From positions 1 to 39,321 of the forward strand of contig JAHIZJ010000027.1 of the NCBI GenBank assembly GCA_018814765.1: a DNA stretch of 39,321 bases, read 5' to 3'. Under the pieces are notes generated by a model. It made no database searches. It worked only from the letters and a program-made list of their open reading frames with translations, and was not told the DNA's origin. Below, piece after piece: positions 4,371 to 30,171 of the stretch. Both the position numbers and the translations under genes were made by a program. Source of the DNA: Patescibacteria group bacterium. Its GTDB lineage: Bacteria > Patescibacteriota > Patescibacteriia > JAHIZJ01. Positions within the stretch are counted from its first letter, which is position 1. Each line of letters begins with the position of its first letter.

Positions 4371-5129
4371 CTAGTCAGTAGGGGTAACCGGGATGGCGGT
4401 GGACCATTCGGGAGACTGGTATTCGCGACCACCCACGCTTGGTTCATGCTCTACTGTTGAGCCTAGATCGACCAGATCTGGGTCTGATGCCACCACAGAC
4501 ACCTCTTTGGCTGTTAGTTCGTAATGATTGATTGCTTCACAGGCTTTGAGAATTCGCGTTACGAACCCATGAAGACTACGGTAGTTTTCAGATGCTCCAC
4601 GTAATCTCCCCAGAGCTTTCTCGAGACGTCTTAGGCCAGTCCTGAGACTGCTGGCCTCTTGATAAAAACGAGCACGACCTCGAACCACGGACTGATGATA
4701 AGTTAGCGCTTCTCCAAGGCCACTATTACCCGCTGCCCAGAGCCAGAAGAGCTCTTGAAGCTCCTCTGGAAATTCAGTATTCTGTAGCTCCAACCTTCCA
4801 TGCATGACAGGGAATGTGCACTTGTAATCCCAGTCCGTACATGGATCAGGGCAGGATTCGGTATTGAGGCGAACTGTTCTTATTCGTCCGTCTACTTTTA
4901 CCAGCACCACTAGACGAGGGTCCTTTTTAGCGTGCTTGATCCAAAAAGGGTTTGGCTCGCTGATGTACATGACATGACGATTTAGTAAGCTACAGCGATG
5001 GTTTTTGTAGCCCTTGAGAGCCATAACCATGTTCCGCCAGATGCCGGAAATCTTATACTTGCCGAACAAGTAGAGAATGGCGGTCACTGGCCAGATCGTA
5101 TTGGTCCAGCACTTAGGTATAACCTTCAT
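4371..5129 (-). CDS. Hypothetical protein
   Basis: 252-aa ORF with AAGGAG RBS; terminator downstream. Confidence 0.7.
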   Translation of the reverse strand: MKVIPKCWTNTIWPVTAILYLFGKYKISGIWRNMVMALKGYKNHRCSLLNRHVMYISEPNPFWIKHAKKDPRLVVLVKVDGRIRTVRLNTESCPDPCTDWDYKCTFPVMHGRLELQNTEFPEELQELFWLWAAGNSGLGEALTYHQSVVRGRARFYQEASSLRTGLRRLEKALGRLRGASENYRSLHGFVTRILKACEAINHYELTAKEVSVVASDPDLVDLGSTVEHEPSVGGREYQSPEWSTAIPVTPTD

Positions 5130-6258: not shown

Positions 6259-7233
6259 TTAATGTCTTATTCTCATTTTATAGAATTTTTTTGCTTTATC
6301 GTACGTTGAAGCTTCTTCATCTCTGATTTCACGGCCGGTCAGCTTTAGGAAAACGTCGTTTAGGGTAGGCTTTCGCAGATCAACACTTTTTACTTTCATG
6401 GACAAGCCACGAAAAAGTAGGGGTATGAATTCCTCGCCTGTCTCTTTTGTAATTAGTAATCCATCATCTTTTTTATTAACCTCAAGACCGAATTTATTTT
6501 TTATTTCTTGAGTTGCCTGATCGTTGTTGTCAGTAATTAAGGTAATAACATCGCCCCCAATCATATCTTTCAGTTTTTTCGGAGTATCAATAGCAATTAT
6601 TTCACCTTTATCCATAATAGCTATTCTATCGCAGTATTCAGCCTCATCCATGTAATGAGTGGTCATAAACATAGTTATGTCTTCTTTTTGTCTTAATTGC
6701 ATGATATATTCCCAGATACGGTTTCTGGTTTGCGGATCCAGACCAATTGTCGGCTCATCCAGAAAGAGAACCTTCGGATAATGTAATAAACCACGAGCTA
6801 TTTCCAGACGTCTTTTCATGCCGCCGGAGAAAGTCTCTACCAGATCCTTTTTTCTAACAGCCAAGTCAAGCAACCCTAACATGTTATCAATCCGCTGGTC
6901 CATTTTTTCGCCTGATTCTCCGTATAGCCAGGCATGAAATTTTAAGTTTTCCTTGGCTGTCAGCTTGTCATCCAGCGAAGGATCCTGAAAAATCAGGCCG
7001 ATAGATGAGCGTACTTTGTCTTTGTCTTTCACTGCATTAAAGCCGTTTATTAGAGCTTGTCCGGATGTGGGCTTAAGAAGAGTGGTTAGCATGTTTATAG
7101 TGGTCGTTTTACCGGCGCCATTTGGTCCGAGAAATCCAAAAATCTCCCCCCTGTTGACTTCAAAGGATACATTGTTGACCGCTGTTAAATCTTTAAACTT
7201 TCTGGTTAATCCTTTAACTTCAATAATACTCAT
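6259..7233 (-). CDS. ABC exporter ATP-binding protein (DrrA-like)
   Basis: GPNGAGKT, FSGGMKRR, LDEPT, TTHYMDEA. Confidence 0.95.
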   Translation of the reverse strand: MSIIEVKGLTRKFKDLTAVNNVSFEVNRGEIFGFLGPNGAGKTTTINMLTTLLKPTSGQALINGFNAVKDKDKVRSSIGLIFQDPSLDDKLTAKENLKFHAWLYGESGEKMDQRIDNMLGLLDLAVRKKDLVETFSGGMKRRLEIARGLLHYPKVLFLDEPTIGLDPQTRNRIWEYIMQLRQKEDITMFMTTHYMDEAEYCDRIAIMDKGEIIAIDTPKKLKDMIGGDVITLITDNNDQATQEIKNKFGLEVNKKDDGLLITKETGEEFIPLLFRGLSMKVKSVDLRKPTLNDVFLKLTGREIRDEEASTYDKAKKFYKMRIRH

Positions 7234-7328
7234 ATGCTTATTTACTATGCTTCTTAATGTTTTTTTTCATAATATTCATAAAATAAGAATTTTAAAAAAT
7301 CATTCATATATAGGGAACGACTCCCTGA

Positions 7329-7736
7329 TGGGGTGGTAGATGGACCCAGTACCACTCACTTCGTTCGGGTACTGGGTGAAAAACCACAACCGCCGGTACC
7401 ACCCAGTCCCGCCAAGCAAGCTGGTTGATTAGGAAACGATGTCTGGGGTGGCCGATGGGGCTCGAACCCACAACCGCCGGTACCACAAACCGGTGCTCTA
7501 CCATTGAGCTACGGCCACCCCAGACATAACTTCTTTATTATATTCATATTTAATAATGCACATACTTTTATTTTGGCTTGGCGAGCGGGGCGGGGCAAAC
7601 CGGTGCTCCCTGTCCCGCACCCAGGGTGGTGCGGGATACCATTGAGCCCCGACGAGATCGCTCTGCGATCTGTCGGGATCCTGGATCCCGAACGGCTCTG
7701 CCGCTTCGGAACATCGGGACTACGGCCACCCCAGAC
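7329..7736 (-). pseudogene. Fragmented tRNA-His copy with four hairpin insertions, enclosing the intact gene
   Basis: Collinear tRNA pieces at 7329-7343, 7384-7402, 7596-7608, 7637-7647 and 7720-7736. Confidence 0.8.
7444..7519 (-). tRNA. tRNA-His (GUG)
   Basis: GGTGGCCGTAGCTCAATGGTAGAGCACCGGTTTGTGGTACCGGCGGTTGTGGGTTCGAGCCCCATCGGCCACCCCA; cloverleaf, G-1:C73, encoded CCA. Confidence 0.96.
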
Positions 7737-7757
7737 CCTACTTGCTGTAACGTCTAT

Positions 7758-7786
7758 ATTGTAATGGAACTTTAACCAGATGGCAA
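7758..7786 (-). promoter_or_regulatory. Sigma70-type promoter for the tRNA-His locus
   Basis: TTGCCA-N17-TACAAT on the minus strand. Confidence 0.6.
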
Positions 7787-7789
7787 GAT

Positions 7790-7985
7790 AAAAAAATGGT
7801 CCGGAGGAACACTAATCGCGCGAGCGATAGCGTTCCCCGGACCGGCCCGGACGGATCCCTTTTTTGGACAAGAACAGGAGCGGGAAACCGCCGGGCAGAC
7901 GAGATCAAAACCGCGTCCAAGGCCGGGTCAAGACCGACTCATGGTGCTACACGGCTGACCTCCCAAAAAGCATTATATAAAGCTA
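7790..7985 (-). ncRNA. Candidate small GC-rich RNA
   Basis: TTGACA-N17-TAACAT upstream (8019-7991); long hairpin 7798-7843 plus T run; no convincing ORF. Confidence 0.35.
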
Positions 7986-8046
7986 GGATTATGTTATCGT
8001 AAGATAATTATATTGTCAAGGGGGTGTATTGAAAATAGCCGAGTAA

Positions 8047-8670
8047 CTATAGTATAAATTCTTTCCCTGATCCGTGGAAAGTAACTTGATTATCTTTTAC
8101 AACGAAAAACTGTCCGTCAGCAAGTAGTCGGATGGGATATTTGAGATTAGCATATATATTTCTAAAGTTGGGAAGCTTTTCTTCTGTGACGTGGCATTTA
8201 ACCAAGAATGGTACCAATTTCATCGCTGTGAAGTCTGTCAGACCGACTGTGTTCCACTTAGGTTTCAATATTGCATGTTGGTCGATTGACGGACCGGCCA
8301 CATAAGCTCCTGAACTGCTACCGGTATATACACCACCTTGGTCTAGGAATTCTCGGACAACTTGTTCGAATCCACTTTCTCTGATTGCGAGTAGCATGTG
8401 AAAGCCGTTACCGCCGGTTAGATGGACAACGTCTTTATCTTTTAGGGCATGCCTAACCTCGTCCTGATCTTTGCCCTTTATATCATAATCCTCCAGATCC
8501 ATTCCCAACGAAGTCCAGACGCTTGCCCCTCTCTCAATGTAGGTTGTATCCGGAACATCGCGACAGGCAGAAGTAATACGTAAAACCCTGGTTTGATCCG
8601 GGCTCTTGGGAAAATGTTTGGAAAATTCTTTTACGTCTTTATTGGCTGAGGCCAATATTATTGTACCCAT
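8047..8670 (-). CDS. Peptidase E (S51) / class I glutamine amidotransferase-like protein
   Basis: LTGGNG and YTGSSSGA nucleophile elbow, downstream His. Confidence 0.85.
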   Translation of the reverse strand: MGTIILASANKDVKEFSKHFPKSPDQTRVLRITSACRDVPDTTYIERGASVWTSLGMDLEDYDIKGKDQDEVRHALKDKDVVHLTGGNGFHMLLAIRESGFEQVVREFLDQGGVYTGSSSGAYVAGPSIDQHAILKPKWNTVGLTDFTAMKLVPFLVKCHVTEEKLPNFRNIYANLKYPIRLLADGQFFVVKDNQVTFHGSGKEFIL

Positions 8671-9647: not shown

Positions 9648-9692
9648 GTTTTTGTAGTTAGATAATAAGATACTATATATTAGTTTTTTATA

Positions 9693-10272
9693 GACTGTCG
9701 AATCAAGCCTGCCTGCATACCTTCGGCATGTAAACCGGCAGGCAAGCTGGATAGTGACAATGGGTAGAACCCTAAAAGCCACAACGATTGTCATTGTCGA
9801 GTTTAACTCGACAATCCAGAAATTCCACCAAACCAATCTTCAGCTAAATCAAGCCAGTTGGGATTTGAATTCTCTATTAGAGCTAACTTCCACTCACGAT
9901 TCCAGCCCTTTAGTTGTTTCTCACGACGGATTGCCTCAGCCACATCATCGGTTTCTTCAAAGTAAACAAGCCTATTAACATTGTACTCTTCCGTGAAGCC
10001 TTTGTTGAATTTTGTTTTGTGTTCATATGCTCGTCGCTCAAGGTCGTTGGTTACACCGATGTATAATGTTCCATTGCGTTGGCTGGCGAGGATATAAACA
10101 TAGTAGGTTCGTGACATATGACGGGCGGTAAATATTAAATATAACCCGTCATGTTTTTTGTCTTTATTTCTAGGCTGTCCGATCAAGCCTGTCTGCCGAC
10201 AAGGCAGGTTGGATAGTGACATAGGACGTTTGTTTGTTTTTCTAGACTATCGAATCGAGTTCGATAGTGACA
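9693..10272. repeat. Four TGTCA-headed REP-like palindromes flanking the GIY-YIG gene
   Basis: Units at 9693-9759, 9789-9816, 10173-10221 and 10245-10272; consensus TGTCAYTRTCSA...TCGAYAGTC. Confidence 0.75.
9803..10117 (-). CDS. GIY-YIG nuclease family protein
   Basis: YYVYILAS...LYIGVTNDLERR...AIRREKQLKGWNREWK. Confidence 0.93.
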   Translation of the reverse strand: MSRTYYVYILASQRNGTLYIGVTNDLERRAYEHKTKFNKGFTEEYNVNRLVYFEETDDVAEAIRREKQLKGWNREWKLALIENSNPNWLDLAEDWFGGISGLSS

Positions 10273-10311
10273 TTGAGTGGTACCCTCGAGAGCCTGCCCG
10301 CCTGACTCGTC

Positions 10312-10386
10312 TGGTGTCCCCAGTAGGAATCGAACCTACATCTAGGGCTTAGAAGGCCCTCGTTCTATCCGTTGAACTATAGGGAC
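10312..10386 (-). tRNA. tRNA-Arg (UCU)
   Basis: GTCCCTATAGTTCAACGGATAGAACGAGGGCCTTCTAAGCCCTAGATGTAGGTTCGATTCCTACTGGGGACACCA. Confidence 0.95.
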
Positions 10387-10405
10387 CTCAGGCGAGTTGG
10401 GCGGG

Positions 10406-10440
10406 GAAGGCCGCTGTTCTATCCGTTGAGCTACAGGGGC
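10406..10440 (-). pseudogene. 5' half of a second, divergent tRNA-Arg (its 3' end probably at 10278-10290)
   Basis: GCCCCTGTAGCTCAACGGATAGAACAGCGGCCTTC breaks inside the anticodon; CTCGAGGGTACCA lies on the other side of the intact tRNA. Confidence 0.7.
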
Positions 10441-10526
10441 ATAAGTAAGTATGTTGTCAAGCTACGCTTGATCCGGCATAGCCGGAAACTACAGAGACAA
10501 GAAATGTGTTAATAAATATACGATGA

Positions 10527-11492
10527 TTATGATTTATCGTCAACGCCTTTGTCTTTTTTAGGACGACCACGTTTACGCGCGTGGAAAGCATTATAAACAT
10601 CTTTTAGCTGTTGATTAGTAATGTGGGTGTATATCTGTGTGGTGGTGATCGAAGCGTGACCCAAGAGTGATTGAACAGAGCGAATGTCTGCTCCACTGGT
10701 CAGAAGATCGGTGGCATAGGAGTGCCTTAACACATGAGGTGTAATTCGTTTGGTAATGCCGACTGACTTGGCGTAGTATTGTACCAAGCGCTGAATACTT
10801 CTAGGGGTTAAGTGTTTGGTGTCGTTTGATTTGTTGGCAGCTCGATCATGTCTGACAAAGAGGGCCAGTGAAGCATCTTGGCGTGCATCCAGATATTGTT
10901 TAAGCCAATACTTTGCCTGGTTAGATAGAAAGACTAAGCGCAACTTACTTCCTTTGCCACGGACAGTGAAGTCGTCTTTTTTCAGGTTGATCTGGTCTTG
11001 TGTCAGATTGGCTAGCTCAGAGACACGTAAACCGGTTGAAAAAAGGAGCTCGAGGATAGCCTTGTCACGTTTTTGAATGATTGGTGGCTCTTTTGACTTT
11101 AGCGGAGCTTCGAGAAAACGCTCCAGATCTTCCCCTTCGAGAAAGGTAACCTGACGATCTGGCATCTTGGCCAGCTCTATCTTTTCCGGGGCTAGAGCCT
11201 TGATATCACGTTTAGCTAAATATTTTAGGAACGAACGCAGAGCAATCAAATAGTAATTCTGGGTACTTTTATTAAGTGGTTCTTTGCGCTGGTTCTCTTG
11301 GCGATTTAACCAAAGGCGATATTTTCTCACAACTTCAATTTCTAGATCGTCAGCGGTTTTGATTTTTGAAAACTCCAAGAATCTATTCAAGTATGATTTG
11401 TAATTCCTTTTTGTGGCTAAGCTACAGTTTCTTTCAATTTCCAGATGATCCAGGAATTCTTTGATGAGTTGTTTGAGAGAAGGTGAGGTCAT
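10527..11492 (-). CDS. Tyrosine recombinase, XerC/D family
   Basis: N-terminal SAM-like domain; TGLRVSE, GKG.K.R, HVLRHSYAT, LGHASITTTQIYTH. Confidence 0.93.
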   Translation of the reverse strand: MTSPSLKQLIKEFLDHLEIERNCSLATKRNYKSYLNRFLEFSKIKTADDLEIEVVRKYRLWLNRQENQRKEPLNKSTQNYYLIALRSFLKYLAKRDIKALAPEKIELAKMPDRQVTFLEGEDLERFLEAPLKSKEPPIIQKRDKAILELLFSTGLRVSELANLTQDQINLKKDDFTVRGKGSKLRLVFLSNQAKYWLKQYLDARQDASLALFVRHDRAANKSNDTKHLTPRSIQRLVQYYAKSVGITKRITPHVLRHSYATDLLTSGADIRSVQSLLGHASITTTQIYTHITNQQLKDVYNAFHARKRGRPKKDKGVDDKS

Positions 11493-23675: not shown

Positions 23676-24596
23676 AAATAAATCATTTATCACAGTTGTC
23701 TAATTTAATAAAGACTCCCGTTTCTGTAATACGAGAGTTAATTAAGGTTCGTCAGAACCTTTATAGGTTAAAAGTTGAAAAGAAGAAAGATGGATCGGAT
23801 AGAATCTTGCATATTCCTAGCCCTGAGTTAAAAACTACACAGAAAAAGATAAATAGAAATATCTCAAACTTTTTAAAGCTCCCTAGTTATATTCACTCTC
23901 AGTCTGGGCATTCACATGTTCACCATGCAATGAGTCACATTGGTCGGCCGATGGTATATGTATTTGATATCGAGGATTTTTTTCCTAGCATTACAGGTAG
24001 AATGTTAAAAAAAATATTAATGAAGCATGGCATGAGTGAGATAGTTGCAAACTCTATAACAAAGTTATGTACATATAGCGGCTTTCCTCAAGGAAGAAAA
24101 AAAAATTTGTTAGAAATTTTCTTCCACAAGGAGCACCGACTAGTCCAGCACTTGCCACAATGGTTGCTACAAGAATAGATAGTCGACTGGCTAGAATGTG
24201 TGAAAAAAATAATTGGGTCTATTCAAGATATGCTGATGATTTAGCAATATCTGGCGGAACAGGAATTAAAAAAGCCAGGAATACGATAGAGAAAATTATT
24301 ATGGATGAAGGCTTCTTTATTAAAAAAGCTAAAATAGAAATGATCTTACCAAAAGAAGGGAAAATACTTGTTGGACTCCGCATTGTAAAAAATCAGGTAT
24401 TGTTACCAAGAAGTTATTACAAGAATTTAAGGTCGATGATATTCAAGTTTAATAAAGGCATAGAGGGCGCGAAGCCCAAAGAGACAAACTTAGAATATCC
24501 ATCCAATCTAAGCTTGCATATGCTTTGTACATTGAAAAATTCTTTAGTACAAATGGCAAATATTCGAGACTATCCGCTACAGTCTCTATAACATAG
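23669..24596 (+). pseudogene. Retron-like reverse transcriptase, split across reading frames
   Basis: KKDGSDRILHIP..LK..Q, HAMSH (NAxxH-like), DIEDFFPSI; in the -1 frame LPQGAPTSP, YSRYADDL and LVGL (VTG-like). Confidence 0.88.
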
Positions 24597-27997: not shown

Positions 27998-29506
27998 ATG
28001 CCTGCAAAAGTATATTCAGCCGGAGTGGTCGGTCTCGATGCCCAATTGATTGAAGTTGAGGCGGATATTGCTTCGGGTTTACCCAAATTCCTAATTGTTG
28101 GTTTACCTGATATTGCAGTACAGGAAGCACGCGAAAGAGTACGATCAGCAATTAGAAATAGTTTACTGCGCTATCCTTCAACTCGGGTAACAGTTAACCT
28201 GGCTCCAGCCGATATAAAAAAAGAAGGGCCGGCTTTTGATTTGCCAATGGCTGTCAGCATTCTGGCCGCCTCGAGTCAGATACCTATAATACCGCCACGT
28301 TCATTGTTTATAGGTGAACTATCTCTTGAAGGAAGACTACGACCGGTAAATGGTATCCTCTCTGTGATGCTGGAGTGCCAGAAAAAGGGCTGGCAAAGAA
28401 TCTTTCTTCCGTCTAGTAATGCTACCGAAGCTTCGATTATTAAAGACGTAAAAATCTACCCTGTAGAAAACCTTAACCAATTAATCAATCATTTGATTGG
28501 TGCTGGTAAAATCAGTCAATACAAGGCCGGTCCATCAGTTTATCAGGCACCTGTATTCTCCGTGGATTTTAGTCAGGTAAAGGGACAAGAACAAGCCAAA
28601 AGAGCACTAACAATTGTTGCAGCTGGTGGCCACAATGCACTACTATCAGGTCCACCAGGCTCTGGTAAAACATTATTGACCAAAGCTTTGGTGTCCATTT
28701 TACCTGAGATGGAGCTGGAAGAAGCTCTTGATGTTACGCGGATCTACAGCGTTGCCGGATTAATACAGACAGACCAGCCACTTTTACGGCAAAGACCATT
28801 CAGGTCACCTCATCATACTGCTTCAGCTGCTTCGCTAATCGGCGGTGGCCGGATACCCCGCCCTGGTGAAATCTCATTAGCTCATAGGGGGGTTCTCTTC
28901 CTAGATGAATTACCGGAGTTTCCCCGTTCGGTTCTGGAAAGTTTACGCCAACCTCTTGAAGAAGGTGTGATATTTGTCACCCGGGTACAGGGTAGCTTGA
29001 AATTCCCGGCAAAGTTTATTCTCATGGCAGCCCAAAATCCCTGTCCCTGTGGATACTATGGCGATCGGGACAAAGAATGTTCCTGTACCCCTTGGCAGAT
29101 TTCTAAATACAATAAAAAGATCTCCGGACCGTTACTTGATCGGATTGATCTGCATTTGAGAGTGTCTCGAGTAAAGTTCGAAGAGCTAACCTCTATTTCA
29201 CCTGCTGAGAAGTCTGACAGCATACGAGAAAGGGTAGTTCAAGCACGCCAAGTACAGTTAAAAAGATTTAAGAACGCAAAAATATTTACAAATACAGAGA
29301 TGGATTCAAGAGGCATTAAAATGTTCTGTCAGATTGATACAGTTAGTCAAGAAATCTTACACAAGGCCATGAGTCTACATCAATTATCTGCCCGTTCCTA
29401 TACCAGGATCTTGAAAGTGAGTCGTACAATCGCGGACCTGGAGGGGAGTGAGAGTATTAAATCACGACATATTGCTGAGGCGCTTCAATATCGAGCGGTT
29501 GATTGA
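27998..29506 (+). CDS. comM: YifB/ComM Mg-chelatase-like AAA+ ATPase
   Basis: IVGLPD, NLAPAD, GPPGSGKT, PFRSPHH, LDELPEF, NPCPCG. Confidence 0.93.
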   Translation: MPAKVYSAGVVGLDAQLIEVEADIASGLPKFLIVGLPDIAVQEARERVRSAIRNSLLRYPSTRVTVNLAPADIKKEGPAFDLPMAVSILAASSQIPIIPPRSLFIGELSLEGRLRPVNGILSVMLECQKKGWQRIFLPSSNATEASIIKDVKIYPVENLNQLINHLIGAGKISQYKAGPSVYQAPVFSVDFSQVKGQEQAKRALTIVAAGGHNALLSGPPGSGKTLLTKALVSILPEMELEEALDVTRIYSVAGLIQTDQPLLRQRPFRSPHHTASAASLIGGGRIPRPGEISLAHRGVLFLDELPEFPRSVLESLRQPLEEGVIFVTRVQGSLKFPAKFILMAAQNPCPCGYYGDRDKECSCTPWQISKYNKKISGPLLDRIDLHLRVSRVKFEELTSISPAEKSDSIRERVVQARQVQLKRFKNAKIFTNTEMDSRGIKMFCQIDTVSQEILHKAMSLHQLSARSYTRILKVSRTIADLEGSESIKSRHIAEALQYRAVD

Positions 29507-29518
29507 TTATGGATGATT

Positions 29519-29604
29519 GGCGGGGACGCCTTCATGTAAATTAATAATATATTATATTAAGAAATAGCATTCCTCTTTTTATCCCATTCGTAGGCGTCCC
29601 CGCC
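29519..29604. repeat. 13-bp inverted repeat (REP-like) upstream of transposase
   Basis: ggcggggacgcct (29519-29531) / aggcgtccccgcc (29592-29604). Confidence 0.7.
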
Positions 29605-29619
29605 GTAGACTCTAAATAT

Positions 29620-30171
29620 ATGAAAAACAAGATTTATTACAACAAAGACCATTTTTATTTCTTGACATCCACCATCAGTGGTCATCGTATTATATTTGAT
29701 CGAGATAATTACGCAACAATAGTTATCGATAGTTTGAAGTATCTTCGTGAAAAAAGATATATGAAATTATATTCGTTTGTACTCATGCCAAACCACATCC
29801 ACATTTTACTGAAAGCTATAGATGGATCAACAATTAATGAAATTGCACAAAAACTTCATTCCTATACAGGACACGCACTTCTTGCTCAAATGCGAAATGA
29901 AAAAGATTGGGGATTATTAAAGTATTTTAAAGAGTTTGCTTATTATTCAAAGAACGATCGTAGCCATTGCTTCTGGTATGATGCATTAGTAAGAAGTATA
30001 GTTGACGAAAGATCAGTATTTAGATTTATGGAATATATACATTCAAATCCTTTTAACAAAAAGTGTGAGTTAGTCAAAGATAGATCGGAGTATAAATACT
30101 CAAGTGCTTGTTACTATGATTCGGGTATACAGTCGATTATAGAGGTGGATGATGTGAGGGAAGAGTGTTAA
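29620..30171 (+). mobile_element. REP-associated tyrosine transposase (RAYT)
   Basis: YFLTS, VLMPNHIH, FW, YIHSNP, YKYSSA. Confidence 0.88.

Follow-up and report, generated by a model that had tools for sequence, protein, structure and literature searches.

The 39,321-nucleotide (nt) stretch of DNA analysed here (the window; contig C114 of genome G000, a Patescibacteria group bacterium, with other G numbers denoting comparison genomes) carries an intact tRNA-His gene that lies within the anticodon loop of a second, broken tRNA-His copy. The intact gene, tRNA-His(GTG), was detected as one copy at 7444-7518 on the minus strand by ARAGORN and Rfam (66.9 bits) and is the sole tRNA-His found in G000. 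The second copy consists of five collinear pieces that flank the intact gene on the same strand and are separated by four GC-rich insertions. From 5' to 3' the locus comprises the following features:

7786-7758, minus strand: sigma-70-like promoter TTGCCA-17-TACAAT (10/12 matches), 5' of the outer copy
7736-7720, minus strand: outer piece 1, a 7-nt leader (gtctggg) and tRNA positions 1-10, the same as in the inner gene
7648-7719, minus strand: D-element, a double hairpin of 72 nt (TCCCGAYG...GGGATCCCGA...TCGGG), between tRNA positions 10 and 11
7647-7637, minus strand: outer piece 2, tRNA positions 10-20
7609-7636, minus strand: hairpin TCCCGCACC/GGTGCGGGA followed by CAGG, 28 nt, at 20/21, the boundary between the D loop and the 3' strand of the D stem
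7608-7596, minus strand: outer piece 3, tRNA positions 21-33 (ARAGORN numbering), the last base being the first anticodon base
7403-7595, minus strand: 193-nt anticodon insertion (34/35), containing the whole intact gene
7444-7518, minus strand: inner intact tRNA-His(GTG), with an encoded G-1 at 7519 and CCA
7402-7384, minus strand: outer piece 4, from anticodon bases 2-3 to the 5' strand of the T stem
7344-7383, minus strand: TTTTTC and a hairpin of 10 base pairs (bp), ACCCAGTACC/GGTACTGGGT with loop CGAACGAAGTGAGT, 40 nt, in place of the T loop
7343-7329, minus strand: outer piece 5, a divergent 3' end of 15 nt, CCATCTACCACCCCA, with 2 changes

Outer pieces 1 to 4 are equal to the inner gene in 60 of 60 bases, the 7-nt leader included. 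The 3' end of the outer copy, also given as CTACCACCCCA, leaves the acceptor pairs 5:68 and 6:67 mismatched, two bases of piece 5 being unpaired with outer piece 1. We tested the flanks of the intact gene for partial copies by spliced alignment, with annotated tRNAs masked and 60 shuffles per comparison. The upstream flank scored 46 (best shuffle 26, z 9.0); on the downstream side the score was 48, and no shuffle exceeded 30 (z 10.0). ARAGORN, Rfam and the spliced alignment agree with a preliminary description of the window, made from its letters alone, which had proposed an intact tRNA-His in the anticodon loop of a four-times-interrupted copy, with exact collinear pieces at 7720-7736, 7637-7647, 7596-7608 and 7384-7402 and a divergent piece at 7329-7343.

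The four hairpin insertions claimed in that description are likewise borne out by coordinates and computed folding, including the pairing arms and the perfect T-loop stem, which extends over 10 bp (7344-7353/7368-7377). In the hairpin at 20/21 the stretch 7613-7621 pairs with 7628-7636. The 193-nt insertion is built of a GC-rich left arm (7595-7576), an AT-rich spacer, the inner gene with its leader and trailer paired, and a GC-rich right arm (7420-7403), and the arm sequences CGCCAAGC (7583-7576) and GCTTGGCG (7418-7411) are paired in the computed fold. No target-site duplication of more than one base was found at any of the four insertions, the 193-nt insertion included.

Between 7990 and 7300 the minus strand has a single sigma-70-like site, the promoter at 7786-7758, in agreement with its earlier placement upstream of the broken copy. 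This promoter probably serves the whole unit. Equivalent sites (TTGCCA-17-TAnAAT) also lie 5' of the outer copies in G001 and G005. In the AT-rich spacer there is a perfect TATAAT (7542-7537) that lacks a -35 partner. The computed fold of the 446-nt transcript has one cloverleaf enclosed in another (z -6.3). We also observed that leader and trailer extend the acceptor stem through the CCA by 5-18 bp in 7 of the 47 tRNAs of G000; for tRNA-His, 82.5% of the cells in this helix are paired across seven genomes versus 70.5% after shuffling, and four of its nine pairs have changed on both sides.

G000 is a 1.38-Mb bin of 139 contigs with 40% G+C that is 98.7% complete and whose 16S rRNA scores 1349 bits with the bacterial model versus 941 bits with the archaeal model. 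Logan contigs of two runs from two studies (X1 and X2) are identical to the window throughout 6900-8100, although either run may be its source, and low-depth contigs from a third study (X4 and X5) are identical over 7618-7915 and 7112-7423, crossing several junctions. All of these contigs are short-read assemblies. The agreement of the three studies argues against the misassembly that had been considered for this locus.

The outer copy is inactive. Joining its five pieces in silico with all four insertions removed gave no tRNA in three of three variants in ARAGORN, which detected the inner gene as control, and Rfam found no second tRNA in 6800-8300. Matches were likewise absent from the 98.7% complete G000 for EndA (PF01974; control positive in 4 archaea) and RtcB (PF01139; control positive in 10 of 14 genomes), and an Rfam search of 6800-8300 with E up to 10 yielded no intron family, only the tRNA and one chance hit. 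The outer copy lacks the features of a functional tRNA: no cloverleaf is recognised, there is no T loop, and two pairs of the acceptor stem are disrupted. It is a dead gene, not an intron-bearing one, and the idea that the hairpins are excisable introns is unsupported. Elsewhere in G000 we noted a tRNA with an anticodon-loop intron of about 230 nt that is group-I-like (G000:C16:4782-5094; L061:583-895; RF00028, 48.5 bits, gathering score 50); 5' of it, a GIY-YIG open reading frame (ORF) lies between this tRNA and a broken 5' tRNA copy with hairpins.

The tRNA-His locus is not an isolated case. We surveyed all tRNA loci of G000 for split copies with the partial-copy test, and 22 of 91 flanks of the 47 ARAGORN tRNAs passed. 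Two of them were set aside as weak, one downstream on C133 (score 10, short flank) and one upstream of tRNA-Ala on C102 (a chain of short pieces), leaving 20 flanks, so that an intact gene is nested in or beside a broken copy at 16 of the 47 genes. The partial copies are 5' parts upstream and 3' parts downstream of the intact tRNA, and four genes (His, Leu-GAG, Tyr and Thr-GGT) have them on both sides. At 11 of the 16 affected genes the anticodon loop contains a break or hairpin, which mostly follows the first anticodon base; the D arm, on its 3' side, is the other common site.

Several of the outer copies are different alleles from the genes beside them. The outer Thr-GGT on C105 has the acceptor GTCCACC/GGTGGGC versus GCCGATG/CATCGGC in the inner gene, and the outer Lys-CTT on C101 also differs from its inner gene and has its own compensated stems. 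In G005 the outer tRNA-His acceptor is GTGGCCA/TGGCCAC, the family consensus, versus GTGACTA/TAGTCAC in the inner gene. Since the stems of the outer Thr-GGT, Lys-CTT and G005 His alleles pair within their own copy, these must once have been separate working genes. At tRNA-Gln(CTG) (G000:C57:33780-34072; L064) a perfect 110-bp tandem repeat places two units before the intact gene, each made of tRNA-Gln(CTG) positions 1-21, a double hairpin and an AT-rich spacer, and the tRNA-Gln(TTG) cassette of G006 has this double hairpin at an identical tRNA position.

A second case lies in the window itself, at the tRNA-Arg locus (9650-11492), where a GC linker follows a 5' half that is a different allele from the tRNA-Arg beside it, and the intact tRNA-Arg (10312-10386) then stands between inverted GC arms. 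A tyrosine recombinase gene (10527-11492) is located 141 nt upstream, and two direct copies of a hairpin-containing repeat of about 60-80 nt (~10224-10165 and ~9762-9685) flank an ORF 3' of the tRNA:

10406-10438, minus strand: 5' half of a different tRNA-Arg(TCT) allele, 33 nt with 5 mismatches, broken at the anticodon
9803-10222, minus strand: GIY-YIG ORF of the longer type (PF01541, 63 bits), 3' of tRNA-Arg, with the likely real start near 10117

The hairpins fall into families with preferred sites. All four copies of the D-element in G000 are located between positions 10 and 11 of broken tRNAs (His, Lys-TTT, Thr-TGT and Val-TAC), and their inner stems vary among copies while pairing is kept. 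Among 401 genomes of the class, 15 have the pattern TAG, D-element, CTCA (14 of 400 if G000 is left out); they come from many families, and a reversed control of this pattern gave no match. A single family, CCCNGYACC...GGTRCNGGG, includes both the 20/21 hairpin and the one in the T loop, and the loop CGAACGAAGTGAGT is shared by many of its members; this family also adjoins tRNA-Met, Thr, Lys, Leu, Ala and Ser, in either orientation, and the loop occurs with other stems on C108, C105, C76 and C54 and twice in the RNase P RNA. The gene of the latter (G000:C130:5189-5856; L015:2190-2857; 137.6 bits) is 668 nt long versus a model of 367 nt and holds about 300 nt of extra hairpins, two of them of the CCCNGYACC family, one forming helix P3 and the other lying immediately ahead of the conserved ACAGAAUUCGGCUUA. 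Of 197 perfect GC hairpins whose stems measure at least 8 bp, 20 are near tRNAs, compared to 2.9% of the genome, an enrichment so mild that most GC hairpins are unrelated. Pfam PF01797 (Y1 transposase, IS200/RAYT-like) has 14 matches in G000, among them 29500-30171 and 531-824 of the window; 3 of the 13 Y1 genes examined have a GC hairpin of at least 9 bp within 260 nt, none of it from the families of the tRNA debris.

Several further observations concern repeats and stable RNAs in G000. In front of the Y1 gene at 29620-30171 of the window stands a GC stem of 13 bp, which encloses an AT-rich loop of 60 nt and is followed by GTAG. A repeat about 150 nt in length, opening with the hairpin CCCCGCACCacattgGGTGCGGGAC and containing a variable GC hairpin midway, is present at C130:~4390-4540, C112:~9870-10000, C96:~520-660 and C83:~8090-8210; three of these four copies, C83 being outside the scan, had no Rfam match at E up to 0.1. 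The 23S rRNA gene (G000:C11:388-3813) measures 3426 nt versus a model of 2925 positions, implying about 500 nt of insertions. No match to the model of the bacterial small signal recognition particle (SRP) RNA was found in the 98.7% complete G000, where the small SRP RNA gene may be disguised by insertions.

Genes for GIY-YIG proteins are linked to tRNAs. Pfam finds 17 GIY-YIG matches in G000, 15 of them at 48-66 bits (cut-off 22.6), and 10 of the 17 lie within 300 nt of a tRNA, all on the strand of that tRNA; in 2000 trials of random placement the mean was 0.45 and the maximum 4. The tRNA-linked proteins are of a short type of 80-110 amino acids, and at least 9 of 11 such sequences retain the residues Y, YIG, R, H and E. 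Their closest solved structures are the UPF0213 proteins 1zg2 and 1ywl, and in NCBIfam group I intron endonucleases alone were matched, below threshold (22 bits; cut-off 56). An endonuclease ORF stands beside the insertion at 10 other tRNA loci of G000 and in G003, G006, G057, G122, G350 and G369. The order intact tRNA, GIY-YIG ORF, D-element and tRNA positions 11-76, the last without a matching 5' strand, is shared by Val-TAC in G000, G057 and G122 and by Met in G350, and in G369 a GIY-YIG ORF runs into an intact tRNA-Lys in such a way that its stop codon is formed by U8-A9-G10. In G003, 5 of 8 small GIY-YIG genes lie less than 50 nt from a tRNA; its congener G006 has such genes at other tRNAs, with no tRNA-linked one in common. 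One GIY-YIG gene of G000 is enclosed by a 16-bp perfect inverted repeat.

Apart from the tRNA loci, we noted a short-type GIY-YIG ORF in the 3' part of the 16S rRNA gene (G000:C99:14980-15231; L062), between gaagacccccc and ggggggg, with the canonical 16S 3' end ggatcacctcctttct about 300 nt beyond it. Reverse transcriptase domains are present in the window at 23780-24357 on the plus strand, in two pieces with an in-frame TAG, and at G000:C74:4485-4658, where the contig ends and the tRNA-Val(CAC) locus is about 570 nt away; both matches are fragments, for which no link to the split-tRNA loci was seen.

Comparison with relatives demonstrates that the architecture is shared, with nested tRNA-His in two other genera of the family and a nested tRNA-Lys in another family. 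Outer tRNA-His copies were found in three of six genomes of the same family, on both sides in G001, on the 3' side in G005 and on the 5' side only in G002. The partial-copy test revealed none in G003, G004 and G006 of the same family, nor at the five loci from other families once hits to neighbouring tRNAs had been removed (11 loci in total); apparent outer copies in G012 and G007 turned out to be neighbouring annotated tRNA genes. The upstream flank in G005 was not significant by the test, and scrambled 5' pieces are visible there by eye. A scan for the tRNA-His leader pattern returned no stretch in metagenomes and three in the genome collection, all of them known loci of relatives. The outer pieces carry the tRNA-His bases of their own genome, the outer copy of G001 even sharing its genome's derived bases, which points to recent or repeated events or to gene conversion and not to one ancient event followed by decay.

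In G246, from another family, a nested tRNA-Lys(CTT) has a layout like that of tRNA-His in the window, i.e. a D-element at 10/11, a CCCCGCACC hairpin followed by CAAG at 20/21, hairpins in the 3' part and, in the anticodon, an inner gene with inverted arms on either side.

The congeners G003 and G006 provide filled and empty alleles at the tRNA-Gln(TTG) and tRNA-Met loci. The intact 74-nt tRNA-Gln(TTG) of G003 is present in G006 as two exact pieces, 1-21 and 29-74, which enclose a double hairpin, a GIY-YIG ORF and an intact tRNA-Gln of different sequence. This inner tRNA-Gln is identical in 57 of 74 positions to the resident gene and in 63 of 72 to the tRNA-Gln of G000, and the outer 3' piece changes from inner-type to resident-type sequence within the anticodon loop. 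This pattern indicates that the outer copy is the displaced resident and that the inner copy came with the nuclease gene. The tRNA-Met pair, conversely, is empty in G006 and filled in G003, where a 104-nt CCCGCC... insertion follows position 11 with the first 11 nt repeated, a homologous insertion being present in G000, and where the spacer between the two genes is replaced by a GIY-YIG gene.

We consider it reasonably probable that selfish elements composed of an endonuclease and palindromes invade tRNA genes and bring a replacement copy along, the tRNA-His locus being one case. This explanation builds on what could be shown here: the anatomy of the locus, its recurrence, hairpins with preferred sites, nuclease genes linked to tRNAs and one comparison of a filled with an empty site. 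The outer copy would then be the former resident tRNA-His gene, still holding its promoter, which a 193-bp insertion with GC-rich inverted arms split inside the anticodon at 34/35. As this insertion bears a complete tRNA-His, the cell would never have been without tRNA-His function. The split resident gene would have decayed to a pseudogene, in which three non-coding palindromes may later have settled at their preferred sites, 10/11, 20/21 and the T loop. Transcription of the inner gene most likely starts at the old promoter and yields a precursor of about 450 nt, from which the usual tRNA processing enzymes would release the tRNA. Across the lineage, small GIY-YIG genes of the UPF0213 type and their hairpin companions would enter conserved sites of stable-RNA genes together with a whole or partial replacement tRNA. 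That the GIY-YIG nuclease cuts tRNA genes, and that it or a relative acted in trans to make the ORF-less insertion at tRNA-His, we infer from the other loci and from the published behaviour of the phage nuclease SegB. Of the two interpretations offered in the preliminary description, the targeting of tRNA genes by palindromic elements with restoration of a replacement copy is thus upheld by the repeat families at identical tRNA positions, the 16 of 47 affected genes and the G003/G006 comparison, and the intron alternative is not.

Several points weigh against this explanation. Neither a GIY-YIG nor any other ORF was found within the tRNA-His structure in G000 (7329-7786), G001 or G005, and the nearest GIY-YIG gene is 2.2 kb away, beside tRNA-Arg, so that the link of a nuclease to the tRNA-His locus is drawn by analogy. 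To our knowledge, no cleavage activity or target site has been assigned to UPF0213-type proteins. The 14 genes resembling Y1 transposases could be the movers of the hairpins, the TATAAT at 7542-7537 may act as a weak internal promoter for the inner gene, and the genomes are metagenome bins from short reads. Moreover, the identity of outer and inner copy fits a recent event within a population, gene conversion and local duplication equally well.

More tentatively, we suggest a self-complementing homing system, in which nucleases of the UPF0213 type would cut tRNA genes at 10/11, 20/21 and 34/35, the spare tRNA averts lethality, the outer shell provides homology arms and perhaps a repair template, and the hairpins are relatives mobilised in trans. 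Repeated repair would in this case keep the broken shell similar to the live gene.

A local duplication without an incoming cassette, where breaks in a tRNA gene are repaired by template switching and hairpins settle later, would account for several of the observations whether the breaks stem from a nuclease or from replication trouble at a highly transcribed, structured gene. Outer pieces 1-4 and the leader are identical to the inner gene, the outer copies of G001 and G005 bear the tRNA-His bases of their own genome, tRNA-Gln(CTG) on C57 has its perfect 110-bp tandem repeat, and segmental tRNA amplification driven by SegB has been published (PMC13096335). However, outer and inner upstream sequences share only 7 nt, although a tandem copy would duplicate the spacer too, and a local copy cannot give the differing outer and inner alleles at Thr-GGT, Lys-CTT, Arg-TCT, the tRNA-His of G005 and the tRNA-Gln(TTG) of G006, which makes local duplication unlikely in our view. 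Still less credence is due to a role of the structure as RNA, either through novel introns that yield a second tRNA or with the outer shell as a scaffold that processes or protects the inner one. Such a role would agree with the position of every insertion at loops or junctions of the cloverleaf, the cloverleaf-in-cloverleaf fold of the 446-nt transcript (z -6.3), stems that differ between hairpin copies and still pair, the presence of the same hairpin family in RNase P RNA, which must stay functional, and the recurrence of the layout in another family (G246). The joined exons, however, form no tRNA, with the T loop lost and two acceptor pairs broken, neither EndA nor RtcB was found in the 98.7% complete genome, and no intron family was detected at the tRNA-His locus, although the group-I-like intron in another tRNA of G000 was detectable. 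Furthermore, the conserved hairpin loop can face either way with respect to the tRNA strand, and whole halves are missing from outer copies at other loci.

Scars of integrative elements, left by tyrosine integrases at attachment sites in anticodon loops and mostly deleted later, are very unlikely as a cause. Breaks in the anticodon loop are typical of integrase attachment sites, and a tyrosine recombinase gene does lie 141 nt 5' of the window's tRNA-Arg, which has a partial 5' copy; but G000 has three PF00589 matches for 16 affected tRNA genes, none of which adjoins tRNA-His, the inserts measure 50-600 bp only, upstream 5' parts are as frequent as downstream 3' parts, and integration by crossover yields copies side by side, not nested ones. 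That the locus is an artefact, i.e. a chimeric join of repeats in the metagenome bin, can be regarded as extremely improbable: the bin is a short-read assembly of 139 contigs and the locus is rich in repeats, but contigs of two studies span it without difference, pieces from the third are identical across junctions, and independently assembled genomes of other genera have a like architecture.

Homing endonucleases are thought to persist in essential genes by means of self-splicing introns or inteins, and the cost of invading an essential gene appears to be met here by bringing a spare copy of that gene. If invasion with replacement is the correct explanation, single-copy tRNA genes of very small genomes are renewed by replacement and not by point mutation, and tRNA alleles can cross between genera. 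The homing system, if real, would give UPF0213 proteins a first function and would explain how a homing element can reside in a tRNA gene without a self-splicing intron. For annotation, it matters that tRNA finders detect the inner genes only and that the debris gives false calls, such as an ARAGORN tmRNA on C102 that extends across the nuclease ORF. With its strict site and its direct link to UPF0213-type ORFs, the double hairpin provides a testable hypothesis for a widespread family of proteins of uncharacterised function.

In the literature covered here, which lies outside subscription journals, nested tRNA genes or tRNA-linked GIY-YIG cassettes in Patescibacteria are undescribed, and the locus shares single traits with several known systems. 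Multi-intron, split and permuted tRNA genes of archaea are spliced by EndA and a ligase into working tRNAs; they, too, have several interruptions and GC-rich complementary sequences at the anticodon-loop break, whereas here the host is a bacterium without either enzyme and the pieces cannot form a tRNA. Islands and phages with tRNA genes as integration sites rely on tyrosine integrases; they span kilobases, and a single partial copy remains at their far end. They resemble the present case in their tRNA target, often the anticodon loop, and in that the incoming DNA restores the gene while a partial copy stays, but here the inserts measure 50-600 bp, copies are nested or two-sided and integrases are scarce. 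In Allomyces mitochondria a mobile GIY-YIG ORF in atp6 brings a copy of the gene end that it displaces, the old end persisting as a fragment. There, as here, an essential gene is kept whole after entry of the ORF and GC-rich double hairpins are found nearby; however, the target is an organelle protein gene, in contrast to the many tRNA loci affected here, at which the replacement can be a whole gene nested in the old one.

The GIY-YIG nuclease SegB of T4-like phages cuts inside tRNA genes, lies near tRNAs and drives the duplication of a tRNA-bearing segment (PMC13096335). Its gene is likewise free-standing among tRNA genes and statistically linked to tRNAs, but SegB comes from phages and includes a DNA-binding part, whereas the proteins described here are of the UPF0213 type with 80-110 amino acids and encoded on a bacterial chromosome; neither nested or split tRNAs nor hairpin companions are described for SegB in the sections of that report considered here (PMC13096335). 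Finally, REP/REPIN sequences with RAYT, Rickettsia palindromic elements and yeast mitochondrial GC clusters are short, non-coding, GC-rich hairpins dispersed as families in a genome (cf. PMC4478555), and they share with the hairpins of G000 an AT-richer genome and the location of some members within functional-RNA genes, whereas the D-element sits strictly at tRNA 10/11 and often directly after a GIY-YIG ORF.

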